24,608 nucleotides of DNA from Candidatus Zixiibacteriota bacterium (GTDB taxonomy: Bacteria > Zixibacteria > MSB-5A5 > CAIYYT01). A program made the position numbers and the translations under genes. The notes beneath the pieces are model-generated. The model was not told where the DNA came from. It made no database searches and saw nothing but the letters and a program-made list of their open reading frames with translations. The stretch lies in the NCBI GenBank assembly GCA_040235515.1, contig JBECKX010000027.1, positions 1 through 24,608 of the forward strand. The letters are read 5' to 3'. This document shows positions 5,639 through 23,953 of the stretch, piece by piece. The first letter of the stretch is position 1. The number at the start of each line of letters is the position of its first letter.

Positions 5639-6039
5639 AGCAACGTACATTGCTCATGATCAAGCCCGACGCAGTCGAGCGCAACCTGATCGGCAAGATA
5701 ATCGATCGTCTGGAGACCGCCGGGTTCAAGGTGGTTGAGCTTAAGATGGTTCATCTCACCGAGGAGCGTGCCCGCGAGTTCTATAAGGTGCACGAGGGCA
5801 AGCCGTTCCTCGACGAACTCGTTGAGTTCATGAGCTCATCGCCGATTGTCGCGATGGGTCTCGAGAAAGAGAATGCGGTCAATGACCTGCGAGATCTGAT
5901 CGGCGCGACCGATCCCTCCAAGGCCGCGTGCGGGACAATCCGCCAGAATTTTGCTATCGATATCGGCAAGAACTCGGTGCACGCATCGGACAGCCCCGAG
6001 AATGCCGAGATCGAATTGAAGTTTCACTTCGGAAGCTAG
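5635..6039 (+). CDS. ndk: Nucleoside diphosphate kinase
   Basis: RTLLMIKPDAV, FYKVHEGKPF, IGATDP, GTIR and catalytic NSVHASDS motif; TTG start overlaps the korC TGA (TTGA). Confidence 0.96.
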   Translation: MKQRTLLMIKPDAVERNLIGKIIDRLETAGFKVVELKMVHLTEERAREFYKVHEGKPFLDELVEFMSSSPIVAMGLEKENAVNDLRDLIGATDPSKAACGTIRQNFAIDIGKNSVHASDSPENAEIELKFHFGS

Positions 6040-6090
6040 ACCGCCTCTCCGCCAGGGCAGAGTGCGGTTTTGATATAGGAAAGTCGTTCG

Positions 6091-7329
6091 ATGAAACTCA
6101 GCGTCCATTATCACGACGCCAATATCGACCTGCAACTCCCTGATGGGTGGCAGGTCGATGTGTTTGATCCGCCGTTTGCGAACCACCAGCCGATTGACTT
6201 CGCGACCGGAGACTTTTCCGAGCTTCGCCTCGCCCTCAGTGACTTTGCCGCGCGGCAGGACAACCTGGTCGTGATCAACGATCAGTTCCGTGCCACTCCC
6301 TCCGCAACTTTGCTTGCTAACCTGTTTAGTGTTTCCGACATCCGACGCCTCAAGATTTTGATAGCGACGGGGGTTCATCCCAAACCGGAACGGGAAGTGA
6401 TAAAGAAGCTGGTGGGGGAACGCGTGTTTGATGGGGCGGAAATCCTGGTTCATTCAGCATTCGATCCTGATGAGATAGTGACGCTCGGAAGTGGTGACCA
6501 GAAGGTCGGGCTGAATCGCCATCTGGTCGATGCGGATGCCATTTACGTGATAGGCTCCGTCGAGCCGCACTACTTCGCCGGATTCACCGGTGGTCGCAAA
6601 GCCTTCCTCCCGGGCTGTGCTGCGTTTGAGGATATCGAAAAGAATCACGCGTTTGCCGTCTCTGAAACCAGTCAGCCGCTGGCGTCCAGAGGGAACCCGG
6701 TGTGGGAGGATATCAAGCAGCGAACCGCGGTGCTCGATGACAAAGAGATTACTTCATCGCAAGTGGTCTGCGATGCCCGAGGCAACGTGTACTTTCACGA
6801 CTATGGCCCAATTGACTTTGCCTATCAGTCTGCCTGCTGCAGGGTCAGGCGACAAGCTGCAACTGCAATCGGCGAGTGCTACGACCTGGTCATCTCTGTC
6901 GTCTACCCGCCTTTCGATCGCAATCTTTACCAGCTGCAGAAATCATACGAGAACGTCAAGAGCGCAGTCGCGGATGGCGGCACCGTGCTGCTCATATCGG
7001 CATGCTATGAGGGTATCGGCAACAGCTACTTCATCGAGCTGGCACGCTCCCTCGACGCGGCGGGTGGCGCGAAGGGAGCTGATGGGGGGAAGCCGACTGG
7101 TGAGGGTGGTGTTATGGGCACCCACAAGGTGCAACGTACTCAGCGGCTGGCTGAGCGTATCAACCTGGTGCTCTTTGCGGAGTTGAAGCAGGGTGATGTT
7201 GACCCGCTGCCGATCAAGATCAGCAACAACCTGGAGCAGACAATAGAAGATTTAATGGAGAAGTATGGCCCCTCATGTCGAGTTGCTGTAGTACTGGACA
7301 GCGCCTCGCAAGTTCTTTATTCTGATTGA
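6091..7329 (+). CDS. LarA-superfamily (nickel-pincer nucleotide-dependent) alpha-hydroxy acid racemase/epimerase
   Basis: INDQFRATP (cf. DxTRP), IATGVH, VEPHYFAGFTGGRK, NH, DRNLYQLQK and CYEGIG match LarA/DUF2088 motifs. Substrate unknown. Confidence 0.8.
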   Translation: MKLSVHYHDANIDLQLPDGWQVDVFDPPFANHQPIDFATGDFSELRLALSDFAARQDNLVVINDQFRATPSATLLANLFSVSDIRRLKILIATGVHPKPEREVIKKLVGERVFDGAEILVHSAFDPDEIVTLGSGDQKVGLNRHLVDADAIYVIGSVEPHYFAGFTGGRKAFLPGCAAFEDIEKNHAFAVSETSQPLASRGNPVWEDIKQRTAVLDDKEITSSQVVCDARGNVYFHDYGPIDFAYQSACCRVRRQAATAIGECYDLVISVVYPPFDRNLYQLQKSYENVKSAVADGGTVLLISACYEGIGNSYFIELARSLDAAGGAKGADGGKPTGEGGVMGTHKVQRTQRLAERINLVLFAELKQGDVDPLPIKISNNLEQTIEDLMEKYGPSCRVAVVLDSASQVLYSD

Positions 7330-8375: not shown

Positions 8376-8420
8376 AGAAAGCCCGCCGACCTGAGATATC
8401 TTCGGCGGGCTTTCTTCATA
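8376..8420 (+). terminator. Probable intrinsic terminator after mdh
   Basis: Perfect 14-bp inverted repeat AGAAAGCCCGCCGA (8376-8389) / TCGGCGGGCTTTCT (8402-8415), 12-nt loop, imperfect U-rich tail. Confidence 0.75.
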
Positions 8421-8480: not shown

Positions 8481-8642
8481 GCGCCAAATTTTTACGGAAG
8501 AATATCTTACGTAAGTGGCTTGCACAAAGCCAGATGCGGCACGTCGAAGATACGGGAAGTGGCGTGTCCGAACCACAGCAGTGGACTCATGGACTCAGTG
8601 GGCAGTGGAGAGACCCAACAGGTTTCAAACTTCAGGAGACGG

Positions 8643-9884
8643 ATGAGAGTCGCTAAATTTACAACTCCACTAGCAATAACAGCATTCCTCATGGTTGTCC
8701 TGTTTGGCGCGCTTCAAGCCCAGCCGGATGCCATCCAGCGTGACTCGTTGGAAGTCGCGACCGATTCACTCTCGCCGATGCCCGCCGTTGCCCCCCTGGT
8801 CAAGCCAGTCAATCCTTCAGCCGAAGACACCCCAAATGATGCCGGAAACAGCATGGATATCGCCTGGGAGCTGGGCAGCGACGATGCGGCCCGGGTGACC
8901 AAGTACCAGGTGATGCGCTCTGAGTCTCCCGATGGCCCTTACGAGGTGGTCGGCGAAACCACCCAGGGGCAGTCAAAATTTACAGATAATACGGTAGCGG
9001 CAGGGGTTGACTATTACTACAGGATCGTGGCTGTCAGTGATCCGCTGGGAGATGGGGTGACGAACTTCGCCTCGGCGGAATCAGACATTATCGGTCCCGC
9101 GGTCTCGACCGGACAATGGTTTAACACTCGTCGCCTCAATGTGCTGCTCTGGACCCTCGTGCTCTCCGGGTCGGTGATCTTCTATATTTACCGAGCCAAG
9201 GGTGGCGGAAATCTTTACATCAGGAAGATCGCCGGTATCGATGCCATCGACGAGGCAATCGGTCGTGCAACCGAGATGGGCCGGAAGGTGTTTTACGTAC
9301 CGGGCATCAACGACATGGATGATGTCCAAACGTTGGCATCTATTGCGATTCTCGGCCGAGTAGCGCGGTTGGCGGCTGAGAGCGATACCTACCTTGAGGT
9401 GCCGGTATCAAAATCGCTGGTGCTTATCACGGCACGCGAAACCGTCAAAGAAGCTTATTCCAAGGTCGGGCGACCCGACTCCTTCCGCGAAGAGCAAGTT
9501 CACTACGTGACAGATGATCAGTTCGGTTATGCCGCCGCTATCGATGGAATGGTGGTGAGGCAAAAACCGGCCACAATGATATATATGGGTGCCTTCTACG
9601 CCGAATCCCTGATTCTGGCGGAGACGGGAAACGCCGCCGGTGCGATTCAGATCGCGGGCACGGCGCAGCCCGCACAGCTGCCGTTCTTTGTGGCGGCCTG
9701 CGACTACACCTTGATCGGCGAGGAACTCTTCGCCGCGAGCGCCTATCTTGCCCGTGAACCGATGCTGCTTGGTTCGCTCAAGGGACAAGATATCGGCAAG
9801 GCGTTGTTTCTGGCATCAATCGTATTAGGGACCATACTCCAGCTACTGGGATTAGACTTCCAATGGTTGCTGAGGGTCAGTTAA
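8643..9884 (+). CDS. Module protein A1: signal peptide + FN3-like ectodomain + TM + DUF6754-like domain + C-terminal TM
   Basis: ATG 8643 follows AGGAG (8634-8638) and yields a signal peptide ending ALQA; FN3-like pattern (IAW...YQVMRS...FTD...YYYRIVAV); conserved AIDEAIGRATEMG, AESLILAETG and QLPFFVAACDYTLIGEELFAASAYL shared with A2 and A3. DUF6754 name is from recall, not a search. Confidence 0.8.
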   Translation: MRVAKFTTPLAITAFLMVVLFGALQAQPDAIQRDSLEVATDSLSPMPAVAPLVKPVNPSAEDTPNDAGNSMDIAWELGSDDAARVTKYQVMRSESPDGPYEVVGETTQGQSKFTDNTVAAGVDYYYRIVAVSDPLGDGVTNFASAESDIIGPAVSTGQWFNTRRLNVLLWTLVLSGSVIFYIYRAKGGGNLYIRKIAGIDAIDEAIGRATEMGRKVFYVPGINDMDDVQTLASIAILGRVARLAAESDTYLEVPVSKSLVLITARETVKEAYSKVGRPDSFREEQVHYVTDDQFGYAAAIDGMVVRQKPATMIYMGAFYAESLILAETGNAAGAIQIAGTAQPAQLPFFVAACDYTLIGEELFAASAYLAREPMLLGSLKGQDIGKALFLASIVLGTILQLLGLDFQWLLRVS

Positions 9885-9917
9885 CGAGAGGATCAATCCA
9901 GGTAAGACTCTGAAGCT

Positions 9918-10589
9918 ATGAAACGAGAAATCCCACTAATAATCACATTCGTCGCCGGCTGCGTGTTTGTAATCCAGTATTTCATTCCGCACTGGCCCTT
10001 CAACGAGTTTGAGCAGGTCTTTACCGACTGGTTCTCCATTGTACAGGCCTTTGCTATCTGGCTTGGCGCGCTCAGTCTGCTCAAGTTCTCGATGCTGAAG
10101 ATTCAGCGTCGCCAAAAAGATTGGTACATGTCGGTGATTATCATCGTTGGGTTTGCGGTGATGGTGGCTTACGGTGCTTACGACGGTTTTGTCGGTATGA
10201 ATGCAAATCCCGCCTATTCATTCCGCGATCCGGGGACCCACTTCGATTGGTTATACCAAAATATTTACACGCCGCTGACTTCGACGATGTTCGCGTTGCT
10301 GGCGTTTTTCGTGGCCTCGGCGTCGTATCGTGCCTTCCGGGCACGTAACTTCCAGGCAACGCTGCTGTTGATCGCCGGCATTCTCGTTATGATCGGCCGC
10401 GTGCCTGTGGGTGACTTGATCACGCAGTTTTTGCCGGAATCGTACCGGGCAGCAAATCTGGCGGATTGGATTATGAATCCGCTCAATGCTACGGGGCAGC
10501 GCGCGATCATGATCGGAATTGCATTGGGTACAGTGTCGACTTCCCTGCGAATAATACTTGGCATTGAAAGATCGCACCTGGAAGGCTAA
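9918..10589 (+). CDS. Module protein B1: uncharacterised polytopic membrane protein
   Basis: About 6 hydrophobic segments; MKR(E/Q)xPL start, TMFALLAFFVASASYRAFRARN, GQRAIMIGIALG and LGIERS shared with B2/B3. Confidence 0.85.
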   Translation: MKREIPLIITFVAGCVFVIQYFIPHWPFNEFEQVFTDWFSIVQAFAIWLGALSLLKFSMLKIQRRQKDWYMSVIIIVGFAVMVAYGAYDGFVGMNANPAYSFRDPGTHFDWLYQNIYTPLTSTMFALLAFFVASASYRAFRARNFQATLLLIAGILVMIGRVPVGDLITQFLPESYRAANLADWIMNPLNATGQRAIMIGIALGTVSTSLRIILGIERSHLEG

Positions 10590-10620
10590 CGTTGATGGAA
10601 GTTCTAGAGGGTAAGCTCGA

Positions 10621-11607
10621 GTGAAGAAAATAGTCCCGGTTATAGTACTGGCGCTTCTGTTTGCCATCGCGCTTTTCAACGATTCGGCGTTGGAACTGTC
10701 GCCGACCTGGTCCTGGGTAGTGACGATACTGCTTGGACTGGCGATGGTGGTGGTTCTTATCCTGTCGATGACAGGCAAGATGATCGAACGCAGAATTGTC
10801 TTCCTGTTCGTCGGCATCTCTCTCGTCCTGCCCTTTTTCATGAATTTCACGATGCCGCTGAATGTGTCACCCGTGGTTCAGACACTTTACGATGCTCTGA
10901 ACAAGCTACCGAAGGGGTCCAAAGTACTGGCGTCCTTCGACTATGATCCGCCATCGGCTCCGGAGCTGCAACCGATGGCCGATGCGTTCGTGAAGTGGGC
11001 GTTCAGGAATGATATCAAAGTCATCATCGTCGGTCTCTGGCCGCAGGGTCCCTTGCAGGCAAACCTCTCGGTCGAGGCTGCCATGGCTGATCCTGAGATC
11101 GCCGCCAAGAACCCGAAGTATGGTGTTGATTACGTAAACCTGGGATTCCAGACCGGAAATGAGTTCGTGATTCAGGGAATGGGCACGTCATTCAGGGCCA
11201 AGTTCCCGACGGATCTCTATAATACACCATATGACAGTATTCCACTGATGCGTGGCGTCGAGAACTTCAGCAACATCGATTTTGTAATGAACCTGTCGTC
11301 CGGTTATCCGGGCACGGTTGAATGGGTGCAGATTGCAGTTGACCGATTCGGAGTTCCGGTCGGCGCCGGCAATACGGCCGTTCAGGCGCCGCAGGTATAT
11401 CCTTACGTTGAGTCTGGACAGCTTACCGGGCTATTGGGGGGGATGTCCGGTGCAGCGGAATTCGAAAAGGCGACCGGTGAGGCAGGCCAGGCCAATACAT
11501 TTTTGTTGTCTCAGTCATTTGCGCATCTCGTAGTCGTTGGTTTCATATTGATTGGAAACGTGGCCCTCTTCATTGGGCAAAATAGGCGGCGAGCCCCTCT
11601 GGTGTAG
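10621..11607 (+). CDS. Module protein C1: uncharacterised membrane-anchored alpha/beta-domain protein
   Basis: GTG start; N-terminal TMs, RRIVF, DYDP...ELQPMA, YGVDYVNLG, PTD...DSIP, GLLGGMSGAAEFE, AH...FILIGN and basic C-terminus, shared with C2/C3. Confidence 0.85.
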   Translation: MKKIVPVIVLALLFAIALFNDSALELSPTWSWVVTILLGLAMVVVLILSMTGKMIERRIVFLFVGISLVLPFFMNFTMPLNVSPVVQTLYDALNKLPKGSKVLASFDYDPPSAPELQPMADAFVKWAFRNDIKVIIVGLWPQGPLQANLSVEAAMADPEIAAKNPKYGVDYVNLGFQTGNEFVIQGMGTSFRAKFPTDLYNTPYDSIPLMRGVENFSNIDFVMNLSSGYPGTVEWVQIAVDRFGVPVGAGNTAVQAPQVYPYVESGQLTGLLGGMSGAAEFEKATGEAGQANTFLLSQSFAHLVVVGFILIGNVALFIGQNRRRAPLV

Positions 11608-11651
11608 CCTCGGGAAGATGAACAGTAGCTTGAGAGTGATTTGGTAGAAAG

Positions 11652-12305
11652 ATGCAGTTCGATATAGGTATCTGGATAGCGGCCCTGCTGACGCTGGGGA
11701 TTATATCGTTCCTCTATAAGGACAACGTCATCTACAAAGTGAGCGAGGCGATCTTTGTGGGTGTTTCTGCCGGCTTCTGGTTTATCTCGCTATTCTGGGA
11801 TAACATCTACCGCAAGTTCTGGGTAGGTGTGTTTCCAGACCCGACATCGGGCAAAGAGCCGCAATATATCCTTTTCGGTGGTGTGTTGCTTGGCGTGCTG
11901 ATGCTATCGCGCCTCTTTGGCAACAAAGCCGGCTGGATATCAAGATGGCCGCTGGCCTTCATCGTGGGTGCGACGGCTGGCTTAAAGATGATCACCTTCC
12001 TTGCCTCCAATGCGGTTGCCCAGATCAATGCGACCGTAGGGAATTTCGTCGCGGCGGTGGCCGCGCCGACTTTCGCCGGTCTGGTCACGGCCTCGACCGT
12101 GACTATCGGGACTTTCTGCGGATTGGTCTACTTCTTCTTCTCTAAGGAGCATAAAGGCTGGTTTGGTGGACTTGCACAAGTCGGTACCTGGGTGCTGATG
12201 ATCACCTTCGGTGCCTCGTTCGGATATACGGTCATGAGCCGTATGTCACTTCTGCTGGGGCGAATTGATTTCTTATTGTCTGACTGGCTGCATTTGATCA
12301 AGTAG
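11652..12305 (+). CDS. Module protein D1: uncharacterised polytopic membrane protein
   Basis: SFLYKDN, VGVSAG, WISRWP, YFFFSKEHKGWFG and FGASFGYTVMSR shared with D2/D3. Confidence 0.85.
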   Translation: MQFDIGIWIAALLTLGIISFLYKDNVIYKVSEAIFVGVSAGFWFISLFWDNIYRKFWVGVFPDPTSGKEPQYILFGGVLLGVLMLSRLFGNKAGWISRWPLAFIVGATAGLKMITFLASNAVAQINATVGNFVAAVAAPTFAGLVTASTVTIGTFCGLVYFFFSKEHKGWFGGLAQVGTWVLMITFGASFGYTVMSRMSLLLGRIDFLLSDWLHLIK

Positions 12306-12369
12306 TCTGAGCTACTCGATCGGTGTGTAAACACTCAAGCAGGGAGACGCTGCTATCAAGCGACCCGGA

Positions 12370-13638
12370 ATGACAGCAAAGCTCTATACAACGATTACTG
12401 CAATAACGATTACTGCACTTTCTTTACTATTACTTCTCATCGCGGCGCCGCATGCGCTCCTCGCGCAATCGGATGCAGTGGCGGAAAGCCCTGATAGCGC
12501 TACGACTGCAGTGGCACAAGTCCCCGACCTCGGACCAATCCTGATCACGGTTGAGGATTTCCCCAGTGATGCCGGTGAGGCTTTGATCATTGGCTGGGAG
12601 GACCCCGGCTACGTATCGTTGCCCGATTTCATCGAGTACCGCGTGACGCGTTACACGGATGATAGCGACAACGGTATGGTGATCGGAACTTCAGTGCTGA
12701 ATCCCGAGGTGATCGATGGGGAGGCCTCGCACAGTATCGCCCACAGCTACACCGTAGCTGCGGTGTTTCCGGACCATGAAGTGATCTCAGCCCGCAGCGA
12801 GCCGGCCATGGCCGAGATTCAATGGGTTGCGGCGGACAAGTATGCGGTGATAATCATCGGCATCTTCGTCTGTGCCGCCGTGATATTCTTCATCGAGACA
12901 GCCAAGCGTGGAAAAACTCTCTTCCTGCGCCGGATCGCCGGTCTTGAAGCGATCGACGAAGCCGTTGGGCGTGCAACCGAAATGGGTCGCCCGATCCTCT
13001 TTGTCGCCGGAATTCAGGATATGGATGATGTGCAAACACTGGCGGGGCTGACGATACTGGGTCGTGTCGCGCGCACCGTTGCGCAGTACGACTCAAAGAT
13101 CAATATGCCGTGTCGCGCTTCACTGGTAATGACCGCCGGGCGCGAAGTGATCAAGGAAGCCTACAATGTCGCCGGTCGTCCCGATGCTTACAGCGACGAT
13201 ATGGTGCACTATGTTACCGACGAGCAGTTCGGGTTCGTGGCAGCGACGAATGGTATTATGGTACGCGAGAAGCCTGCCACTTGCTTTTATCTGGGAGCAT
13301 TCTTCGCCGAATCACTCATTCTCGCCGAAACCGGAAACTCTATCGAGGCAATTCAGATAGCGGGTACCGCGATGCCCGCGCAGTTGCCGTTCTTTGTGGC
13401 GGCATGTGACTACACTTTGATCGGTGAAGAGTTGTTCGCAGCATCAGCCTATCTCTCTGAGGAACCACGTCAGCTTGGTTCGCTCAAGGGGCAGGATGTG
13501 GGCAAGGCGCTCGCCATGATCGCGATCGTCGTTGGCGGCATTTCGGTCACACTCGCTCAGGCATGGGATATCGGTTTGTTCCAGGTTATCGAGTCCGCGC
13601 TGCGCACAGCATTTAACATCCAGTTGCCGGTGAGATAA
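12370..13638 (+). CDS. Module protein A2 (diverged FN3-like ectodomain + DUF6754-like domain)
   Basis: Signal peptide ending LLA; AIDEAVGRATEMG, AESLILAETG, QLPFFVAACDYTLIGEELFAASAYL, GSLKGQD. Confidence 0.85.
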   Translation: MTAKLYTTITAITITALSLLLLLIAAPHALLAQSDAVAESPDSATTAVAQVPDLGPILITVEDFPSDAGEALIIGWEDPGYVSLPDFIEYRVTRYTDDSDNGMVIGTSVLNPEVIDGEASHSIAHSYTVAAVFPDHEVISARSEPAMAEIQWVAADKYAVIIIGIFVCAAVIFFIETAKRGKTLFLRRIAGLEAIDEAVGRATEMGRPILFVAGIQDMDDVQTLAGLTILGRVARTVAQYDSKINMPCRASLVMTAGREVIKEAYNVAGRPDAYSDDMVHYVTDEQFGFVAATNGIMVREKPATCFYLGAFFAESLILAETGNSIEAIQIAGTAMPAQLPFFVAACDYTLIGEELFAASAYLSEEPRQLGSLKGQDVGKALAMIAIVVGGISVTLAQAWDIGLFQVIESALRTAFNIQLPVR

Positions 13639-13653
13639 GGGTATTACTGCAAG

Positions 13654-14319
13654 ATGAAAAGACAGATACCTCTCATAATCATCATGACCGTCGGCTGGGT
13701 ACTGATGGTGTCAGTATTCGTTCCACCGTTCGAGAGCTGGGGCGAGGAAGCTTCGCTATTCTTCGACATCATTGCGGTGTTTGCCTTCTTCCTCGGTGGT
13801 GGCAACCTGATCAGGGTGCATTTCACCAAGATCAACAGAAAGAGTGAGGGGTGGGGTTTCTCGGTCGTGACGGTAGCGGGGTTTGCGGTGATGCTTATCC
13901 TGGGGCTGTTCAAGATCGGTGGCAGCATCTCCGCACCGGTTGACACCGCAGGGACACCGTTCGAATTGATGTTCCGCTATGTGATGTCGCCATTGCAGGC
14001 GACGATGTACTCGTTGCTGGCGTTCTACGTGGCCTCGGCATCGTATCGGGCGTTCCGCGCACGCAACATCGAGGCAACCATCCTTCTGATTGCTGCATTC
14101 GTGATTCTGCTCGGTCGCACGCCGTTCGGGTTCTATCTCACGGCGTGGATTCCAGAGTCATTCTCAATTCTTGAGATTCCGAATATGGCGGTTTGGATCA
14201 TGAACTCACCCAATCTGGCGGGCCAGCGTGCGATCATGATCGGTATTGCGCTTGGCGTGATATCGATGTCGCTGCGACTCCTGCTCGGTATCGAACGCAG
14301 CTACCTGGGGGGTGACTGA
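13654..14319 (+). CDS. Module protein B2
   Basis: MKRQIPL, ATMYSLLAFYVASASYRAFRARN, GQRAIMIGIALG, LGIERSYLG. Confidence 0.85.
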   Translation: MKRQIPLIIIMTVGWVLMVSVFVPPFESWGEEASLFFDIIAVFAFFLGGGNLIRVHFTKINRKSEGWGFSVVTVAGFAVMLILGLFKIGGSISAPVDTAGTPFELMFRYVMSPLQATMYSLLAFYVASASYRAFRARNIEATILLIAAFVILLGRTPFGFYLTAWIPESFSILEIPNMAVWIMNSPNLAGQRAIMIGIALGVISMSLRLLLGIERSYLGGD

Positions 14320-15236
14320 TGACTTTCCAACAGTACATTCCGATTATCGTTGTCGGCATCGGGCTGATCTGGATCTTCATCCGTTCATGGCGTGGTCAGG
14401 ATGTGGACCGCCGCATCGTATTCAGCTTCATCGGCCTGACGGTTGCCCTGGCGCTGATTTTCCAGGTGATGTTTGGTGAGCGCGCTACCGCGATTGTCAG
14501 AGCGGCTTATGACAAGATCGAAAATCTTCCTGAGGGGTCACGCATACTCCTCTCATACGACTTTGATCCGGCCATGGCGCCTGAGGTTCACCCGATGGCC
14601 AACTCCTTTATCCGCCATGCAATGGCGAAGAATCACAAGCTCTATCTCTATTCGCTGTGGGCGACCGGGCAGACTTTGTTGCAGGAGAGTTTGACTGAGG
14701 TACTGGAGCCTGAGTTTCCGGAGAAGGAGTATGGCAAAGACTGGGTCGTCATGGGCTACAAGGCGGGTAACGAGGGTGTGTTGAATGTGATCGTGACAGA
14801 TATTCGCAAGATGTATCCGACTGATGTCCACAATACATCGCTCGATTCACTGCCAATCTACGATGGTGTAAAATCCCTTAAAGATTTTGATCTGCTGATT
14901 TCGGTTGGTGGTGGCAAGCCGGGCGTAAAAGAATGGGTGCTCTTCGCTGGTGACCGGGCAAACGTACCTGTCGCCGGCGGGTCCGCTGCGGTGTCTGCAC
15001 CGTTGCTTTATCCCTACTATCCCCGCCAGTTGATCGGACTGTTGGGCGGAACCAAGGGAGCCGCTGAATATGAGTCGGAGTTGATCCGTGAATATCCGCG
15101 CTTTGCCGATATTGACACACCGGCTTTACGGATGATGGGTCCGCAGACGATGGCGCATGTCGTGATCATTGCGTTCATCCTGATCGGCAACGTCGCGTAC
15201 TTCCGTGGTAAGCGCAAGAGGAGGTCTGAGGTATAG
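14319..15236 (+). CDS. Module protein C2
   Basis: TGATG overlap with B2; RRIVF, DFDP...EVHPMA, YGKDWV, PTD...DSLP, GLLGGTKGAAEYE, AH...FILIGN, C-terminal RGKRKRR. Confidence 0.85.
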   Translation: MTFQQYIPIIVVGIGLIWIFIRSWRGQDVDRRIVFSFIGLTVALALIFQVMFGERATAIVRAAYDKIENLPEGSRILLSYDFDPAMAPEVHPMANSFIRHAMAKNHKLYLYSLWATGQTLLQESLTEVLEPEFPEKEYGKDWVVMGYKAGNEGVLNVIVTDIRKMYPTDVHNTSLDSLPIYDGVKSLKDFDLLISVGGGKPGVKEWVLFAGDRANVPVAGGSAAVSAPLLYPYYPRQLIGLLGGTKGAAEYESELIREYPRFADIDTPALRMMGPQTMAHVVIIAFILIGNVAYFRGKRKRRSEV

Positions 15237-16067
15237 ATGGCCAACTCTAAGAACTTGATGCGCATCATCTCGGCGGCTGTTGCGCTGGCATTTGTCATCA
15301 GCTGGATCTTCAAGAGCATGAACGGCATGGAAGACACGACGTGGCTCAATGTCCGCCAGGGCGCGCTGGTGACGATAGCGGCTTTCCTTACGCTGTCGAT
15401 CTACTCATTCCTGTATGGCGACAATCCGTTCTACCGATTTGCGGAACACCTGTTCGTGGGAGTCTCGGCGGCGTACTGGATGTCGCTCGGATTCTGGAGC
15501 ACGATTGTAGGAAATCTGGTGCCACGCACGCATCCCGCCATTGCTGATTTCTTCCAGATCGCCTACAGCCAGGATATACCGACTTACCTGCGCCTTATTA
15601 TGATCATACCGGTGGTGCTGGGCATACTGCTCCTGTTGCGGTTGGTGCCCAAGGTCTCGTGGATATCACGCTGGCCACTGGCTTTCATCATCGGCACAAC
15701 CGCCGGCCTTAACCTGCCACGTTACCTTCAGTCAGACTTTATCCAACAGATCAACAATACGTTCATCACGATGTTGCCGGCCTGGGAGGGTTTCGGCTCC
15801 TTCTTCTCCAACTTCTCGTTCTCCGCGTCGGGACAGTTCGCCATGATTATGTCGAACATCGTCATCTTCGTCGGTGTGGTGTGTGGCCTGGTTTACTTCT
15901 TCTTCTCGAAGGAACACCGTGGCTGGTTTGGGGTAGCATCACGCATCGGAATCTGGGTCTTGATGATCACGTTCGGTGCGTCGTTCGGTTACACCGTGAT
16001 GGGCAGAATTTCACTGCTAGTGGGTAGAATTACCTTTTTATTCCACGACTGGTTGAATATACTTTAG
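15237..16067 (+). CDS. Module protein D2 (extra N-terminal TM)
   Basis: Abuts the C2 stop (TAGATG); SFLYGDN, VGVSA, WISRWP, YFFFSKEHRGWFG, FGASFGYTVMGR. Confidence 0.85.
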   Translation: MANSKNLMRIISAAVALAFVISWIFKSMNGMEDTTWLNVRQGALVTIAAFLTLSIYSFLYGDNPFYRFAEHLFVGVSAAYWMSLGFWSTIVGNLVPRTHPAIADFFQIAYSQDIPTYLRLIMIIPVVLGILLLLRLVPKVSWISRWPLAFIIGTTAGLNLPRYLQSDFIQQINNTFITMLPAWEGFGSFFSNFSFSASGQFAMIMSNIVIFVGVVCGLVYFFFSKEHRGWFGVASRIGIWVLMITFGASFGYTVMGRISLLVGRITFLFHDWLNIL

Positions 16068-16159
16068 GCCAAAGCCGGCAAAGAGAGTTTAGTCAGGCAG
16101 ACGATCGCGCACTGAATTTGACTTTGAATTTTATTCTAATATCAGGTAAGAGGTAGCTA

Positions 16160-17425
16160 GTGCAAAAACTGGTGCAGAGAGCAGCCATTTTCTTTCTAGC
16201 GCTCCTGTGTATCGGCATCACTCCGCTGTTGGCGCAGTCGGGTGCTGATACCAGCGGAAGTGCGATGGATGATATGGCGCAGGCGACCATGGCAGATCTG
16301 CCCGTGCCTCCCGCTCCACCGACCAACGTTACCGTTCAGGATCGCTCCAACGACAATGGTACGGGAGTGATCGTGCGGTGGACCGCGTCGGCCGATGAGG
16401 GAGCCGCAGGCAAGGTCTTGATGTACAAGGTCTATCGCTCGCTGGTGTCCGATGCCCCGTTCGACCAATGGGTGGAGCGTGGCCAGGTGCAGATTAACGG
16501 TGGCGAGTATTCCTATGTCGACGAGGGAGCACGAGATAAGGACAAGTCAGATTATTTCCCGAAAGGTGTCGATCTCTTTTACAGGGTCGCGGCGGTAAGC
16601 GCCGATACGTTCGGTCTGTCGGCGAGTTCCGATCCGGTGCAGTCGGCCGATGAATGGTACAACACGACGCGAACCACCGTGCTGGTCTTCGTGCTGGTTT
16701 TCTTCGGGTTTACCCTCTACTTCATTAACGTAGCCAAAACAGGTAAGAGCCTTTATGTCCGCCCGCTGGCCGGCATTGAGGCGGTAGACGAGGCGATCGG
16801 TCGCGCAACCGAGATGGGCAAGCCGATCCTTTATGTGCTGGGTCTCGGAACGGCATCCGACATCGCCACCATCGCATCATTTTCGGTGCTCGGTCGTGTT
16901 GCCAAAAAGGTGGCGGAGTATCAGACACCGATTCTGGTGCCGTGCTACGATCCGATCGTGCTGACGGTGGCGGAGGAGACGGTGAAGACCGGTTACTCCG
17001 ATGCCGGTCGTCCAGACGACTATAAGGATGACTCGGTATACTTCGTGACGCAGTCGCAGTTCGCTTATGTCGCGGCCGTCAACGGCACGATGCTGCGTGA
17101 ACTCCCCGCGACGAATATCTATCTTGGAAAATTCTACGCCGAATCACTGCTGCTGGCTGAAACGGGAGCGGTGACCGGCTCGATCCAGATCTCCGGTACG
17201 GATGAAATCGCGCAGCTGCCGTTCTTCGTGGTGGCGTGCGACTATACCCTGATCGGCGAGGAGCTCTATGCGGCGAGTGTCTACCTGAATCGCGAACCGA
17301 TCCTGATGGGCACTCTGAAGGCACAGGATTACGCGAAGGCGTTCGTGCTGTTTTCGATAGCTGTCGGGTTGCTTGGACGAGTGGTTGCACCCGATTTACT
17401 TCACACAATCTTTAACATCAAGTAA
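16160..17425 (+). CDS. Module protein A3 (FN3-like ectodomain + DUF6754-like domain)
   Basis: GTG start after AAGAGG; signal peptide ending LLA; PPTNVTV...VRW...YKVYRS...YVD...YRVAAV; AVDEAIGRATEMG, QLPFFVVACDYTLIGEELYAAS. Confidence 0.85.
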   Translation: MQKLVQRAAIFFLALLCIGITPLLAQSGADTSGSAMDDMAQATMADLPVPPAPPTNVTVQDRSNDNGTGVIVRWTASADEGAAGKVLMYKVYRSLVSDAPFDQWVERGQVQINGGEYSYVDEGARDKDKSDYFPKGVDLFYRVAAVSADTFGLSASSDPVQSADEWYNTTRTTVLVFVLVFFGFTLYFINVAKTGKSLYVRPLAGIEAVDEAIGRATEMGKPILYVLGLGTASDIATIASFSVLGRVAKKVAEYQTPILVPCYDPIVLTVAEETVKTGYSDAGRPDDYKDDSVYFVTQSQFAYVAAVNGTMLRELPATNIYLGKFYAESLLLAETGAVTGSIQISGTDEIAQLPFFVVACDYTLIGEELYAASVYLNREPILMGTLKAQDYAKAFVLFSIAVGLLGRVVAPDLLHTIFNIK

Positions 17426-17440
17426 CTGGAGGACCGGTAA

Positions 17441-18481
17441 GTGAAGAGACAGTTTCCACTACTGCTGGTATTCCTCAGCGGTGTTTTCATGGTCATCCAG
17501 TACTTCGTGCCTGCCGGGTTTTCGGAAAAGGCATACGAGTTCCTGATTGACTGGACGATCATCATCGGCATCTTCGCGCTCGCGCTCGGGATCTGGTCAT
17601 TGGTCAGAGTGAGTTATCACAAGATCAAGACAGGGCATCCGGATGCCAAGTACTCTATGGTCACCCTTGCGGGTCTGGCGCTGATGCTCTTTTTTGGGTT
17701 TCAGTTCCCCGGCTATGACTACAAAGAGGTGTATCGGGCGTCGCAGGCGAGAGACTACATCGCCACGAACTTCAATAACGCCGGCGCCGCCGCCACGGAG
17801 AAGGTGTTCCTGCCGGAGAATGACACACTCTCGATCGATGTGGCCACTCTTCGGGCGGAGTTGCCGCAGTTCGCCGATTCGGTAGAGCACTGGGTCGAGC
17901 TGTTTCAGACCTCTGATTGGTTCGAAGGCGCTGATAATGAAGCCGAAGATCTGGCCGCAGTGACTGCTGCCGCAGAAGAGCTGCGAGCCATGGTCGCACA
18001 ATATGATGGAGTGAGCCGGGCAGATACTGCCACCCTCACCGCCCTCGGTGCGCAGATCTCCGGGATCTCAGAGCGGGGAGCGGAAGCGGCCAACCGCCTG
18101 GATGGCATCACCGATGTCTATCCTTTCACCGGTGGGCTTGAAAGCTACATGTTCAGGGCTTTCTTCGAACATATCATGATTCCGATCCAGGCTACGATGT
18201 TCAGCTTGCTGGCGTTTTACATCGCTTCAGCGGCATATCGAGCTTTCCGTGCACGCAACCTCCTCTCGACGGTGCTGCTGATTGCGGCATTCATCGTGAT
18301 GGCGCGCGTGCTCGAGATGGGTCCTTTGACTGATCTGGTGAACAAGCTGTCCGCCTGGGTGCTGCTGGTGCCCAATCTTGCGGCGAAGCGAGCGATCTGG
18401 ATCGGGGTCGGGCTGGGAATCGTTGCAACTTCACTCAAGGTGATCCTCGGTATCGAGCGGTCATACCTGGGAAGGGACTAG
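17441..18481 (+). CDS. Module protein B3 with a large soluble insertion
   Basis: GTG start after GGAGG; MKRQFPL, ATMFSLLAFYIASAAYRAFRARN, KRAIWIGVGLG, LGIERSYLG; 346 aa versus 221-223 aa for B1/B2. Confidence 0.85.
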   Translation: MKRQFPLLLVFLSGVFMVIQYFVPAGFSEKAYEFLIDWTIIIGIFALALGIWSLVRVSYHKIKTGHPDAKYSMVTLAGLALMLFFGFQFPGYDYKEVYRASQARDYIATNFNNAGAAATEKVFLPENDTLSIDVATLRAELPQFADSVEHWVELFQTSDWFEGADNEAEDLAAVTAAAEELRAMVAQYDGVSRADTATLTALGAQISGISERGAEAANRLDGITDVYPFTGGLESYMFRAFFEHIMIPIQATMFSLLAFYIASAAYRAFRARNLLSTVLLIAAFIVMARVLEMGPLTDLVNKLSAWVLLVPNLAAKRAIWIGVGLGIVATSLKVILGIERSYLGRD

Positions 18482-18491
18482 GAGGTCTGTG

Positions 18492-19376
18492 ATGGAAGAA
18501 GTGAAGAGGCAAGGTCCGAAGAACTTCAATGAGAAGCTGATGAGCATGGATCGGCGCTGGGTGTTCCTGGTGCTCGGTGTGGTCGTTATTGCCGCGCTGC
18601 TTACCGGGATCAAGGCTCCGCTGTCGATTACACAAGAAGTGCGCGACGTCTATAATTTCGTCGAGGGACTCAAAGAAGGTGACAATCTGCTGGTGGCGAT
18701 CGACTACGATCCGAACGCCAAAGCGGAGTTGCACCCGATGGCCTACGCCATCCTCGAGCAAGCAATGGCGAAGAAGCTGAAAGTGATTACCCTGACGTTG
18801 TCTCAGAACGGCGCCGGTATGGCCGAGCAGGTCGTGCGGGATGTCGTTGACTCGGTGTCCACTTATCATGGGTTCAGCCCGGAGTATGGGAAGGACTATG
18901 TGTTCCTCGGATACCGTCCCTACTATGCGCTCGTGATTCTCGGCATGGGACAGAACTTCCGGATTCCGTATCCCACCGACTACTACACGACGCCACTTGA
19001 TTCGCTGCCGATGATGCGGCGCATCCAGAACTACAACCAGGTGACAGGTGTAATTGATATCACCGGCAGCAATGTTGCGGATGCCTGGGTCGCAAATGCA
19101 AATGGTCGTTATGGTGTCAAGGTTGCTTTAGGGTTGACCGGAGTCTCGGCCGCGGACTACTATCCCTTCTATCAGTCGAAGCAGATTTTCGGGCTGATGG
19201 GTGGAATGAAAGGTGCGGCTGAATATGAAAAACTCACCGATAACCCCGGACTGGCTATGGAGGCAATGGGAGTGCAAACGTACGCACACCTCGTGATTAT
19301 CGCGTTTATCCTGATTGGTAATATCGGGTTCTTCCTGGATAAGCGTGCACGCAAGCAGAGAGGGGAGGCGGTCTGA
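18492..19376 (+). CDS. Module protein C3
   Basis: AGGAGG SD at 18480-18485 favours ATG 18492; RRWVF, DYDP...ELHPMA, YGKDYVFLG, PTD...DSLP, GLMGGMKGAAEYE, AH...FILIGN. Confidence 0.85.
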   Translation: MEEVKRQGPKNFNEKLMSMDRRWVFLVLGVVVIAALLTGIKAPLSITQEVRDVYNFVEGLKEGDNLLVAIDYDPNAKAELHPMAYAILEQAMAKKLKVITLTLSQNGAGMAEQVVRDVVDSVSTYHGFSPEYGKDYVFLGYRPYYALVILGMGQNFRIPYPTDYYTTPLDSLPMMRRIQNYNQVTGVIDITGSNVADAWVANANGRYGVKVALGLTGVSAADYYPFYQSKQIFGLMGGMKGAAEYEKLTDNPGLAMEAMGVQTYAHLVIIAFILIGNIGFFLDKRARKQRGEAV

Positions 19377-20047
19377 TGGTTCCCCTTGATCAACTTCTCT
19401 GGCAGGCGTTTGCCGTATTCCTGACCTTGTCGGTGTTGTCGTTCCTTTACAAGGACAACGCCTTCTACAAGTTTGCCGAGCATATCGTGGTCGGCGTCTC
19501 TGCAGGATACTTCGTTATCATTCTCTATTACAATGGTCTGAGACCGAACCTGTTCGATCACCTTTTCGAGCAAAACACCTGGGACCCGAAGGCGGGGCAG
19601 CTCTACTATATCGTTCCGCTCCTGCTGGGCCTGATCATGTGGGCGCGCTTTTCCAAGAAGTGGTCCTGGATCAGCCGCTATCCGATCGCACTCTATATCG
19701 GTATCGCGACCGGTGTTTCGATTCCGCTCGAGATGAAGAATCGTGTGATTGAGCAGGTCCGAGGTACGGTTCTTGAAACCGGCTTTGATTTTGGCAAGAC
19801 CGGGATGCTGGGGCTCCCGAGCGGAGTTTGGGATGTTGTTCTTGTCGTGCTGGTGGTATGCTCCCTGATCTATTTCTTCTTCTCGAAGGAGCACAAGGGC
19901 TGGTTTGGCGGGATTGCCAAGGTTGGCATTTACACTCTGATGATTGGCTTCGGAGCGTCGTTCGGTTATACCGTGATGGCGCGTTTGTCGCTGTTCATTG
20001 ACCGTGTCCAGTTTGTGAAGAACTGGGTTGAGCTACTGATAAAGTAA
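19376..20047 (+). CDS. Module protein D3
   Basis: TGATG overlap with C3; SFLYKDN, VGVSAG, WISRYP, YFFFSKEHKGWFG, FGASFGYTVMAR. Confidence 0.85.
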   Translation: MVPLDQLLWQAFAVFLTLSVLSFLYKDNAFYKFAEHIVVGVSAGYFVIILYYNGLRPNLFDHLFEQNTWDPKAGQLYYIVPLLLGLIMWARFSKKWSWISRYPIALYIGIATGVSIPLEMKNRVIEQVRGTVLETGFDFGKTGMLGLPSGVWDVVLVVLVVCSLIYFFFSKEHKGWFGGIAKVGIYTLMIGFGASFGYTVMARLSLFIDRVQFVKNWVELLIK

Positions 20048-20211: not shown

Positions 20212-20316
20212 AGTTGCATGTCGGGCATCGAAAAAAACCGCTAAAAGTCGATCTGTGAGGTCGAGTTTTTTGGGCCGTGTCGTGTAAATCGTTAACTTTT
20301 GCCACGGAAGGCGGGG

Positions 20317-20640
20317 ATGGCAAAAATCAATCTTACGAAGACCAGGCGAAGTCGCAAGGAGCCTCTCTCACCTGAGGAGGCTAAGCGGCGGCGGCGGGAG
20401 TACCAGCGCCAATACTACTTGGCTCACCGCGAGAAAGCCAAGGAGTATCAACGCCAGTACAACCTGCTGCACAAGAAGAAACAACGTGTACCGGGGGCGA
20501 AGGGGAAGAATGCCAAGTCGTATCAGCGGGAGTCTGAGAAGACGACCTACAATACTCACGACCTGATGCATGCTCCCGCCGAGAAGACCCTCAAGATACT
20601 TCAGAAGATCATTGCAGGTGAAAAGACATTCACCATGTAG
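20317..20640 (+). CDS. Small, highly basic hypothetical protein (107 aa)
   Basis: Only sizeable + ORF between a promoter and a hairpin; G/C-ending codons like neighbouring genes; ATG 20317 after AAGGCGGGG (alternative TTG 20299); EYQRQY occurs twice. Confidence 0.7.
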   Translation: MAKINLTKTRRSRKEPLSPEEAKRRRREYQRQYYLAHREKAKEYQRQYNLLHKKKQRVPGAKGKNAKSYQRESEKTTYNTHDLMHAPAEKTLKILQKIIAGEKTFTM

Positions 20641-20800: not shown

Positions 20801-23800
20801 ATGACACCGAAAGCGACCAAGACAAAAGCCAAGAGTAAGAAGGCCCAAGCCAAATCTTCGAGGAAATCCGGCGCCAAGAAGTCGGCCGCGAAGAAACCTA
20901 CCTCAAAATCTACAAGCAGGAAAACGGCAAAGAAAGTGACAACCAAGGCTAAATCAACCGGTAAAGCCGCCGGGAAATCCACCCGCAAGGCTTCAGCTAA
21001 AACCTCAAGCAAGACAAAGACTTCCAGAGAAGACTCAACGATTGCAGCCGCCAAAGCCGCTACCAGGCCACGGCGAATCGGCGTAAAGGCCTCGGCCCCA
21101 AGCGACAATCAACCCCAGGAGCATCGGGCCAAACTCGACGATTCCACTAAGTATATCTACTCCTTCGGTGGCGGTAAAGCCGATGGTGAGGGCTCAATGC
21201 GTGAACTGCTCGGCGGCAAGGGGGCAGGATTGGCCGAAATGACCAATCTCGGAGTGCCGGTCCCGCCCGGATTCACGATTTCCACCGAGGCCTGTCGGCT
21301 CTTCTACGACAACAACCTCGCACTTCCGAAAGAGTTCGAAAAGCATATGCAGGCTGCGATGAAGCAGCTGGAAAAAGAGATGGGATCGAAATTCGGCGAT
21401 GCGGAAGATCCGCTGCTGGTCTCGGTGCGGTCCGGCGCGAAGTTCTCGATGCCGGGTATGATGGATACGATCCTGAACCTCGGTCTGAACGATGAGTCAC
21501 TGCAGGGTATCATCAACAAGACCGGCAACGAACGCTTTGCCTACGACAATTACCGCCGCTTCATCGCGATGTTCGGTAATGTCGTACTGGGAATCGACAA
21601 GGATGAGTTCGAGGAACTGATCACCAAGAAGAAGAAACAGCGCGCGATCAAGCATGACTCTTCGCTTTCGATCGAAGACCTGAAAGATATCGTTAAGAAT
21701 TTCAAGAAATTGGTACAAAAGAAGTCTGGTGAGCCGTTCCCGACAGATCCGTGGGACCAGTTGCGGATGGCGCGTGATGCCGTGTTCCGCAGTTGGAATT
21801 CTCCGCGCGCGATCACGTACAGGGCCAAGTACGAGATCCCGTCTGACCTGGGCACTGCTGTCAACGTTCAGGCAATGGTGTTCGGCAACATGGGTGAGAC
21901 TTCCGCCACCGGTGTCGGGTTTACCCGTAATCCGGCTACCGGAGCTAACGAGTTTTACGGAGAGTTTTTGATCAACGCCCAGGGTGAGGATGTGGTGGCG
22001 GGTATCCGGACGCCGCAGCCGATCAAGGAGCTGGAGAAGGAAATGCCCAAGGCGTTCGATCAGCTCAAGAAGATCACCGCGAAGTTGGAGCATCATTACC
22101 GCGACGTCCAGGACTTCGAGTTCACGATTCAGGAAAACAAGCTTTACATGCTGCAGACCCGCACGGGCAAACGTACCGCGCAGGCGGCAGTGAAGATTGC
22201 TGTCGATATGGTGAAGGAGGGTCTGATTACGAAGGAAGAAGCGCTGATGCGTTTAGAACCCTCCGACCTCGATCAGCTTCTCCACCCGCGCATCGACCCC
22301 GATGCCGAGACCGAGACGATCGCCAGGGGTCTGGCGGCATCACCCGGTGCGGCTTCCGGTAAGGTAGTCTTCCACGCCGACGAGGCGGTTCGCCTCAACG
22401 AGCGGGGCGAGAAGACGATCCTCGTGCGGATGGAGACAAACCCCGATGATATCGCCGGAATGATTGCCTCCGAGGGTATCCTCACTTCGCGCGGCGGTAT
22501 GACCTCGCACGCTGCAGTTGTGGCACGCGGGATGGGAAAGCCATGCGTCGTGGGTTGTGAAGATATTCGCGTGTACGAGTCGCGCCGCCAGTTTGCGATC
22601 GGTACGCTTGTGGTTAAGGATAAGGAGATCATTACGATCAACGGTACGACCGGTGAGGTGATGCTCGGCGAAGTACCCACACTTGAACCAGAGCTCTCGG
22701 GTGAGTTCGGTGAGTTTATGGAGTGGGCTGATGAACTGCGTGTTCTCCAGGTGCGCACCAATGCCGACAATCCGGAAGACTCGACGACCGCGCGCCGGTT
22801 CGGCGCCCAGGGAATCGGACTTTGTCGTACCGAGCATATGTTCTTCGGAAAGAACCGCCTGCCACATATCCAGGCGATGATCCTGGCGACGACACAATCG
22901 GATCGACAGACCGCGCTCGACAAGCTGTTGCCATTCCAGAAGTCAGATTTCAAAGCGATCTTCGAGGCGATGGAGGGTTTGCCGGTTACGATTCGCACGC
23001 TCGACCCGCCGCTGCATGAATTCCTCCCGAATGAGGAAGAACTGAAGCAGAAGCTCGCCGAGATCAGTGATGACCCGGACAAGTATGAAGAGGTCGAGAA
23101 GATCAAGAAGATGCTCGAACGGATGGAAGAGCTTGAGGAGCAGAATCCGATGCTGGGTCATCGCGGTTGCCGTCTCGGGATAACTTATCCGGAGATCACC
23201 GAAATGCAGGTAAAGGCAATCATGATGGCTGCGGCTGATCTGATCAAGCAGGGCAAGGAAGTCTATCCTGAGATTATGATTCCGCTGGTTGGCAATAAGA
23301 ACGAGTTGGCGCACCAGAAGGAAGTTGTCATGCGCGTCGCTGAGTTCGTCTCGCGCAAGTCGAAAGTTGAGATTCCGTTCCTGGTGGGAACTATGATCGA
23401 GATCCCGCGCGCAGCGTTGACCGCCGACGAGATCGCCAATGAAGCGCAATTCTTCAGCTTCGGCACCAACGATCTGACCCAGATGACGATGGGTTTCTCG
23501 CGTGATGATGCCGGCAAATTCCTGCGCCACTACTACGAGAAGGAAATCCTCGAAAAGGATCCGTTCGTCACGCTCGATCAGGAGGGTGTTGGTCAACTCG
23601 TAAAGATGGGTGCCGAGAAGGGACGTGCTACGCGCCCGGACCTTAAGGTCGGTATCTGCGGCGAGCACGGTGGTGATCCGAAGACGATCGAGTTCTGCCA
23701 TAAGCTTGGTTTGAATTATGTGTCCTGTTCACCGTTCCGTGTACCGATTGCCCGCCTTGCGGCGGCACAGGCGGTGATACGCGAGAAGTGGGAAGCCGGC

Positions 23801-23953
23801 GATCGTGAGAAGCCGAGCGGCAAGCCGTCAAAGTCATCCGGCAAATCGTCTTCGAAGTCAAGAAGCAGCAAGGCTGCGGCCAAGCCCAAGAAGGCAGCCA
23901 AGGCTGCGACTGCCAAGAAGTCTGCACCTAAGAAGAAGGCGAAGAAGAAGTAG
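20801..23953 (+). CDS. ppdK: Pyruvate, phosphate dikinase with Lys-rich N- and C-terminal extensions
   Basis: KYIYSF, LLGGKGAGLAEM, PLLVSVRSGA, MPGMMDTILNLGLN, NAQGEDVVAG, phospho-His motif GGMTSHAAVVARG, GIGLCRTEHMF, SFGTNDLTQ, GICGEHGG. Confidence 0.97.
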   Translation: MTPKATKTKAKSKKAQAKSSRKSGAKKSAAKKPTSKSTSRKTAKKVTTKAKSTGKAAGKSTRKASAKTSSKTKTSREDSTIAAAKAATRPRRIGVKASAPSDNQPQEHRAKLDDSTKYIYSFGGGKADGEGSMRELLGGKGAGLAEMTNLGVPVPPGFTISTEACRLFYDNNLALPKEFEKHMQAAMKQLEKEMGSKFGDAEDPLLVSVRSGAKFSMPGMMDTILNLGLNDESLQGIINKTGNERFAYDNYRRFIAMFGNVVLGIDKDEFEELITKKKKQRAIKHDSSLSIEDLKDIVKNFKKLVQKKSGEPFPTDPWDQLRMARDAVFRSWNSPRAITYRAKYEIPSDLGTAVNVQAMVFGNMGETSATGVGFTRNPATGANEFYGEFLINAQGEDVVAGIRTPQPIKELEKEMPKAFDQLKKITAKLEHHYRDVQDFEFTIQENKLYMLQTRTGKRTAQAAVKIAVDMVKEGLITKEEALMRLEPSDLDQLLHPRIDPDAETETIARGLAASPGAASGKVVFHADEAVRLNERGEKTILVRMETNPDDIAGMIASEGILTSRGGMTSHAAVVARGMGKPCVVGCEDIRVYESRRQFAIGTLVVKDKEIITINGTTGEVMLGEVPTLEPELSGEFGEFMEWADELRVLQVRTNADNPEDSTTARRFGAQGIGLCRTEHMFFGKNRLPHIQAMILATTQSDRQTALDKLLPFQKSDFKAIFEAMEGLPVTIRTLDPPLHEFLPNEEELKQKLAEISDDPDKYEEVEKIKKMLERMEELEEQNPMLGHRGCRLGITYPEITEMQVKAIMMAAADLIKQGKEVYPEIMIPLVGNKNELAHQKEVVMRVAEFVSRKSKVEIPFLVGTMIEIPRAALTADEIANEAQFFSFGTNDLTQMTMGFSRDDAGKFLRHYYEKEILEKDPFVTLDQEGVGQLVKMGAEKGRATRPDLKVGICGEHGGDPKTIEFCHKLGLNYVSCSPFRVPIARLAAAQAVIREKWEAGDREKPSGKPSKSSGKSSSKSRSSKAAAKPKKAAKAATAKKSAPKKKAKKK

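Follow-up and report, generated by a model that had tools for sequence, protein, structure and literature searches.

Tandem four-gene membrane modules in a Zixibacteria genome and their possible dependence on an actin-fold ATPase

Background

Several membrane modules can draw on a single energising unit whose gene lies elsewhere in the genome, as in group II ECF transporters or with shared ABC ATPases such as MsmX. The ATP-driven solute transporters known to us rely on ATPases of the ABC, P-type or rotary kind. The system considered here would resemble the ECF and MsmX arrangements in logic only. It is centred on a stretch of 24,608 nt from a Candidatus Zixiibacteriota bacterium (the window, taken at full length; the genome holding it is G000) that carries three tandem copies of a four-gene membrane module, A-B-C-D. 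The commonest neighbours of A in related loci are a MutL/GlmL-like gene, T, and its partner, K. The reading tentatively favoured, at rather less than even confidence, is that each A-B-C-D set would be one inner-membrane complex, and that the five sets of G000 would be interchangeable modules for uptake, all powered by a single actin-fold ATPase encoded apart from them, T, together with K.

Gene counts (one T against two to six matches to DUF6754, the family of A) fit the logic of ECF and MsmX. The linked ATPase differs in having an actin/ASKHA fold (by its MutL Pfam match), not an ABC fold, and no sequence or fold match to EcfT, an S component or an ABC permease appeared in Pfam, NCBIfam, PDB profile, or C and D fold searches. 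MutL/GlmL itself is a chaperone involved in reactivating glutamate mutase (PMC4682846). T shares with GlmL/MutL the actin-fold ATPase domain PF13941 with intact phosphate motifs, and differs in a C-terminal extension and in adjoining K and membrane genes, not mutase genes; a close relative of T (in L027) scores below the NCBIfam cut-offs (229.5 of 475 for GlmL, 219.9 of 600 for Or-4). The profiles PF06368, PF16552 and PF09043 (glutamate mutase E, ornithine/lysine aminomutase alpha) have no match in G000, in a test whose control was weak for the first and silent for the others. No family, structure or paper describing the system was found, nor any literature on DUF6754 or on PF13941, by a literature search that leaves supplements and most subscription papers outside and could miss mentions in tables. 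(PMC5167688, as far as its available text extends, mentions a Dictyoglomus mutase cluster and describes no membrane genes, and the available part of PMC5898192 does not cover the system.)

Co-inheritance and contact of the four subunits

A full A-B-C-D set is found in 61 of 73 A-anchored loci; of the other 12, eight run off the contig within the first module and four break off otherwise. Three tandem A genes are seen in 33 of the 73 (a count of rows). G000 itself has five modules: three in the window, one on contig C138 and one on C15 (the fourth and fifth, L080:4078-9927 and L081:1297-7239). A preliminary description of the window had proposed an undescribed multi-subunit membrane complex; co-occurrence of A to D elsewhere is borne out by these loci, and the proposal as a whole is supported by the fixed gene order, by natural C-D fusions and by copy-specific B-D covariation.

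In a tree of 125 concatenated modules, copies 1, 2 and 3 of the window each group with the module of the same rank (first, second or third) in most other genomes; the copy-2 clade has a support of 1.0 and the copy-3 group one of 0.86, and one divergent lineage deviates from the pattern. In 117 of 124 modules the four subunits agree on which window copy is nearest, and the subunit distance matrices correlate with one another (r 0.86-0.92 over the 125 modules). The copy-specific clades and the concordance of subunits indicate that the four genes of each copy have been evolving together from a time before these lineages diverged.

In an inverse-covariance analysis of 276 paired modules (effective number of sequences, Neff, 145) the two highest-ranking pairs of all are B-D pairs. 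When partners are shuffled within clades, the top inter-subunit z falls from 13-15 to 6.2-8.6. In a stricter control, subunits are combined across different copies of one locus, so that organism history is kept. Over 56 three-copy loci, the cognate pairs B74-D30 and B122-D86 score z 13.0-13.2 and 11.6-14.6, respectively, against -1.3 to 3.1 for their non-cognate counterparts, the highest non-cognate score of any pair being 10.4. This cognate-only signal supports contact between B and D within a copy, with no sign of mixed complexes. Where the preliminary description had left a choice between three specificity variants and a hetero-oligomer, variants fit better, each copy having its own clade and its own subunits; a mixed hetero-oligomer is disfavoured in that the strongest inter-subunit pairs vanish in mixed pairings.

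C and D are joined in a single open reading frame (ORF) in five of 37 long D homologues (P0121, P0123, P0124, P0125 and P0156). Four of these fusions, including that of Calycomorphotria hydatis, have a hydrophobic linker between C and D, which agrees with the orientations predicted for the two proteins. (Sequencing frameshifts are possible for P0123 and for three C+D ORFs of the phylum of genome G123.) Long ORFs in GC-rich loci were rejected as fusions, being overlapping frames, and 53 long B homologues and 150 A representatives yielded no A-B or B-C fusion, a weak negative given how crowded the search was.

DUF6754 is found in 121 of 121 genomes of G000's phylum (two to six matches each, mostly five), in all ten of G123's phylum and in 56 of 61 of the phylum of G122 (Cloacimonadota). 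None of 14 well-known control genomes has it, which may explain why the system went unstudied. A sample of 200 genomes anchored on G121, lying in G000's own phylum and overlapping the 121-genome sample (hence not independent of it), matched the system in every case. Three named planctomycetes with homologues, C. hydatis, Thalassoroseus pseudoceratinae and Planctomicrobium sp. SH527, are cultured, and the system may thus be testable in culture.

Families, folds and predicted topology

A1-A3 match Pfam DUF6754 (PF20539) over the full model at 376-403 bits against a cut-off of 27 (E 1e-113 to 1e-121), which settles a membership that had been raised as a question; it is the sole above-cut-off match among the 12 proteins of the array. 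The entry is a catalogue item without function, and the A profile matches 2539 clusters at 50% identity. B, C and D lie outside any Pfam or NCBIfam family, none having a match over cut-off. Profile searches against PDB sequences gave a best E of 1.2 for A and 0.36 for C, and none for B or D; in the ESM Atlas the 30 matches of B are all unnamed clusters and C has no usable named match. Pfam and NCBIfam find no ABC, Fe-S, kinase or helix-turn-helix family in the 12 proteins, in line with the preliminary description, which had seen no Walker A, Fe-S, kinase or helix-turn-helix motif.

The AlphaFold2 model of D1 (pLDDT 90.4, pTM 0.62) consists of three helix pairs and is not compact alone; the fold search with the D model returned no clear solved relative (which by itself is no proof of a new fold). 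The model of C3 has a generic Rossmann-like domain, and fold searches with it return generic Rossmann matches only: RCK/KTN proteins (KtrA 5but, TrkA 3l4b) and the DsrE-like MT0777 (1kjn) tie with many unrelated Rossmann folds at 6-9% identity to C. From the Ktr/Trk RCK domains C differs further in that it lacks a glycine-rich nucleotide loop after strand 1 and that its domain is predicted, by charge bias, to lie outside. The bias of Lys+Arg suggests a placement of the A domain inside and the C domain outside, with the N-terminus of B inside and that of D outside, some loops being ambiguous in this prediction.

A self-contained secondary carrier or channel, made of two inverted halves (A-B and C-D) with T-K a mere regulator or bystander, is quite improbable on this evidence. 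Three profile tests of A-C and B-D paralogy gave nothing significant: hhalign probabilities are 1-9%, over short transmembrane stretches only, within or near shuffled controls (which reach 8-18% for B-D). The RCK scores tie with those of unrelated Rossmann folds. Known secondary carriers and channels (TRAP, MFS, APC, Ktr/Trk and others) provide no curated-family match for B, C or D and no solved-structure match; of Rnf and Na+-NQR, likewise, A-D show no Fe-S, flavin-binding or family match, and K has only a sub-threshold RnfC_N score (20.5 of 25.6 bits). Such a carrier would also leave the tight T-K link unexplained, and it is this link, to genes outside the window, that weakens the secondary transporter or channel first suggested for the array.

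Conservation is distributed unevenly: 68 of 196 columns of the inner domain of A are at least 95% conserved, against 17 of 215 in the outer domain of C, the pattern that a common partner on the inside and differing ligands on the outside would produce. The heads of A1 and A3 have weak Fn3 matches; among the 64 longest A representatives, fn3 is found in three heads and PQQ_2 propellers in 14. A also has a nearly invariant Cys in its predicted cytoplasmic part and several invariant Glu, and the core membrane helices of B and D have many invariant Gly and Arg.

The ATPase-like gene T and its partner K

T (617 aa) is found near A in 28 of the 73 A-anchored loci and K (375 aa) in 25, one or the other being within the flank of 30. 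In G000, T (9817-11706, minus strand) and K (8568-9698, minus strand) lie side by side on C60, a contig other than the window's. T matches PF13941 (MutL) at E 1.3e-130 and is 75-82% identical among relatives; both of what we take to be its phosphate motifs are intact across 100 sequences. All 121 genomes of G000's phylum have T, 112 of them as a single match. T-K-A-B-C-D form one co-directional run in seven of ten genomes of G123's phylum (eight of the ten loci fetched), and in Cloacimonadota the same 56 of 61 genomes have both K and DUF6754, the same five having neither. A is present in 21 of 80 K-anchored metagenome loci. Samples from three phyla thus show T-K next to A-B-C-D. By gene order and distribution the modules appear tied to the actin-fold ATPase-like T and its partner K, and annotations of 'glutamate mutase L' in such genomes may not indicate glutamate fermentation.

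A T-K fusion paralogue, in which a MutL-like ATPase is joined to a K-like region without the C-terminal KOW part, occurs at L082:8010-10958 and L278:3555-6698; in the close relatives G336 and G355 a T-K fusion stands directly before A-B-C-D. Two small gene families, present in 19 and 12 of the 80 K-anchored loci and usually just before T (L198:6829-7239, L264:3837-4304), adjoin each other in G000 on C142:5328-5924 and 5938-6432. They match no Pfam family and might be additional components.

Weak matches to KOW and to barrel-sandwich hybrids are seen in K. These would suit a transmembrane sensor, in which ligands would be bound by the outer domains and T-K would be turned on or off by the inner domain of A, with no cargo moved; variation outside and conservation inside are also what receptors with one shared output could show. 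A sensor is the least probable of the alternatives weighed here: a core of twelve membrane helices, with its many invariant Gly and Arg, exceeds what a receptor needs, and family scans found no kinase, cyclase or DNA-binding domain in any part.

In 12-14 of the 73 loci, T-K continues into tol-like genes (recognised by eye, and which we take to be tolQ-R-A-B-pal), a link confined to part of one phylum. An ATP-driven exporter, translocase or envelope-building machine, using the same parts to move lipid, polymer or protein outward or to remodel the envelope, could account for this continuation, for a presence in every genome searched of G000's phylum that resembles a core function, and for Fn3 and propeller heads, which suit macromolecule binding. 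Outward movement is nevertheless unlikely, since a set of two to six diverged copies per genome, whose outer domains vary, is better suited to the intake of several cargoes than to one route of export, the tol-like link is so limited, and T-K of G000 has other neighbours.

T also has an above-cut-off match to Hydantoinase_A (E 3.7e-5). On the strength of this match T might be thought of as a kinase or other enzyme using ATP that alters the substrate on entry or transfers a group by way of A, the whole being a membrane-bound enzyme or a group translocation system. The nearly invariant cytoplasmic Cys and invariant Glu of A fit such chemistry, as do glycosyltransferase folds among the weak matches of C and the position of the fourth G000 module, which follows genes that we take to encode HPr, PTS enzyme I and phosphoglucose/mannose isomerase. 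On the other hand, the matches are weak and generic (Foldseek TM 0.2-0.3), one T for five modules would need one chemistry for several substrates, and the HPr/enzyme I neighbourhood was found once; group translocation is accordingly given less credence than export, itself unlikely.

A shared cytoplasmic motor

One T-K against two to six modules, taken with a conserved inside, a variable outside and A heads of binding type, suggests exchangeable modules that share one cytoplasmic motor. In an uptake system so built, B and D (six predicted helices each, in opposite orientation) would touch and form the membrane core. A would have its conserved domain, Rossmann-like, on the inner side and a head that varies (Fn3 or beta-propeller in relatives) on the outer side, and C would have a variable Rossmann-like domain outside. 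T-K would dock on the conserved cytoplasmic face, made up of the A domain and loops of B and D, and would spend ATP to move cargo, caught by C and the head of A, across B-D. Each copy would take a different cargo. Direction and cargo are proposed by analogy, and docking and use of ATP are steps that we infer.

If this is true, a transporter powered by an actin-fold ATPase would constitute a new class. It is conceivable, if somewhat short of an even chance, that the system is a new class of primary active transporter in which an actin/Hsp70-fold ATPase from the B12-enzyme reactivating chaperones powers exchangeable four-subunit modules whose membrane fold is unmatched in the PDB. The modules are possibly built of two inverted halves with a Rossmann-like domain on each side of the membrane. 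With a like measure of reserve, such a transporter could belong to the core equipment of Zixibacteria, Cloacimonadota and other phyla that have been little studied.

Several observations weigh against uptake modules with a shared ATPase. Kinases and chaperones, too, make use of the actin fold. The covariation has little depth (Neff 93-145), and for both B122-D86 and B116-D38 the predicted topology puts the paired residues at different levels in the membrane. B116-D38 and three A-B pairs are cognate-only and lie near the ceiling of the control (A-B z 8-12); no C-D or A-C pair stands out in copy-specific covariation. In the flank (often short) of 59 of the 80 K-anchored loci no module is seen. 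The five Cloacimonadota genomes without K and DUF6754 are all of 1.5-1.6 Mb and may represent one loss event, G122 itself matches only the fused T-K paralogue, and six T-K fusions in G000's phylum stand away from any module. With regard to uptake, there are no Rfam riboswitch matches in eight sources (142,522 bases), and no conserved catabolic neighbour is seen in the A- and K-anchored loci.

Organization of the array

The array consists of 12 intact genes, all on the plus strand and without internal stops, in the order A-B-C-D three times over, with gaps of -1 to 92 nt between genes. Positions, order and intactness are as in the preliminary description, and the motifs that it quoted are present in the alignments. 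Local identity between copies is 46-50% for A, 45-55% for B, 38-40% for C and 44-53% for D (38-55% overall). BLASTP between copies gives E <=1e-46 for A, C and D, and 2e-65 for B1-B2; the match of B3 is split by an insertion, its longer piece scoring E 3e-27 and 8e-34. The best match across families among A, B, C and D has E 0.1, and the four are thus unrelated to each other. The GC content of the array resembles that of the remaining window.

In a 300-nt stretch of A, codon positions 1+2 are 72-86% identical and position 3 only 37-49%. The array is therefore an old triplication under purifying selection, as first proposed. An assembly artefact or a recent duplication is ruled out by the divergence between copies, the codon-position pattern and the copy-specific clades.

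In the first copy, A1 (8643..9884, plus strand as throughout; 413 aa; DUF6754 E 6.5e-120, fn3 E 0.068) has a hydrophobic N-terminus (a likely signal peptide), a weak Fn3-like head, a transmembrane segment, the DUF6754 domain, predicted to be cytoplasmic from hydropathy and from basic residues after transmembrane segment 1, and a second transmembrane segment. B1 (9918..10589; 223 aa) belongs to no family and has six hydrophobic segments with its N-terminus predicted inside. C1 (10621..11607; 328 aa) has two extra N-terminal hydrophobic segments followed by a Rossmann-like domain, predicted periplasmic, between two transmembrane segments (its fold is taken from the C3 model). D1 (11652..12305; 217 aa) has three repeats of a short helix plus a long helix, with a predicted N-terminus outside.

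The second copy comprises A2 (12370..13638; 422 aa; DUF6754 E 6.4e-121; clade 2), B2 (13654..14319; 221 aa; 48% identical to B1), C2 (14319..15236; 305 aa; 40% identical to C1) and D2 (15237..16067; 276 aa; 53% identical to D1), the last with one extra N-terminal hydrophobic segment by hydropathy. In the third, A3 (16160..17425; 421 aa; DUF6754 E 7.1e-113; clade 3) is followed by B3 (17441..18481; 346 aa), with an insertion of ~125 aa in its third loop, predicted periplasmic, that splits the BLASTP match into 1-86 and 238-343; long B homologues have insertions of ~300 aa or more at the same site. C3 (18489..19376; 295 aa) has a six-stranded Rossmann-like alpha/beta domain between two transmembrane segments, and D3 (19376..20047; 223 aa) is 44-45% identical to D1 and D2.

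Neighbouring genes and other features

A 12-bp GC-rich hairpin followed by a short T-rich run (8378..8413, plus strand; read from the sequence) stands after mdh and is likely a terminator that ends the mdh transcript and separates mdh from A1. (It is absent from the list of the scanner, which allows loops of 3-8 nt only.) Near the array, mdh is seen in one and ppdK in at least five of the 73 related loci, counts that are lower bounds, the fetched flank often ending inside the array. Neither mdh nor ppdK is conserved as a neighbour, so the two give little information on cargo, and the hint once drawn from the position of the array between them loses its force.

Other neighbourhoods are varied. 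The fifth G000 module is divergent from what is presumably a sugar-type ABC transporter. In G123's phylum (L118, L120, L122 and L124) the T-K-A-B-C-D run follows genes resembling, as we take it, the glycine cleavage system, and in L120 the run is followed by what we take to be a peptide-type ABC transporter; these neighbours are a weak hint at amino acids or peptides.

Within the window, a LarA-family nickel-dependent racemase gene (6091-7329) lies directly before mdh; among NCBIfam models it scores best against malate racemase LarAH6, with 194 bits where the cut-off is 500. The gene at 1438-2766, presumably succinyl-CoA synthetase alpha-like, and ppdK (20801-23953) encode long Lys/Ala/Ser/Thr-rich, histone-like tails, C-terminal in the first and at both ends in PPDK. 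Before ppdK, a basic ORF of 113 aa (20299-20640) with repeated Tyr-Gln-Arg motifs matches no family; a look-alike, judged by eye, follows the last D gene in L001, L003, L009 and L014. The end of the window (24068-24608) is occupied by a 154-bp tandem unit in three full copies and a partial fourth that runs to the contig end. Each unit contains a 26-bp inverted repeat and has no Rfam match; with similar copies on C212 and short matches on C169 and C176, this array looks like a palindromic intergenic repeat family.

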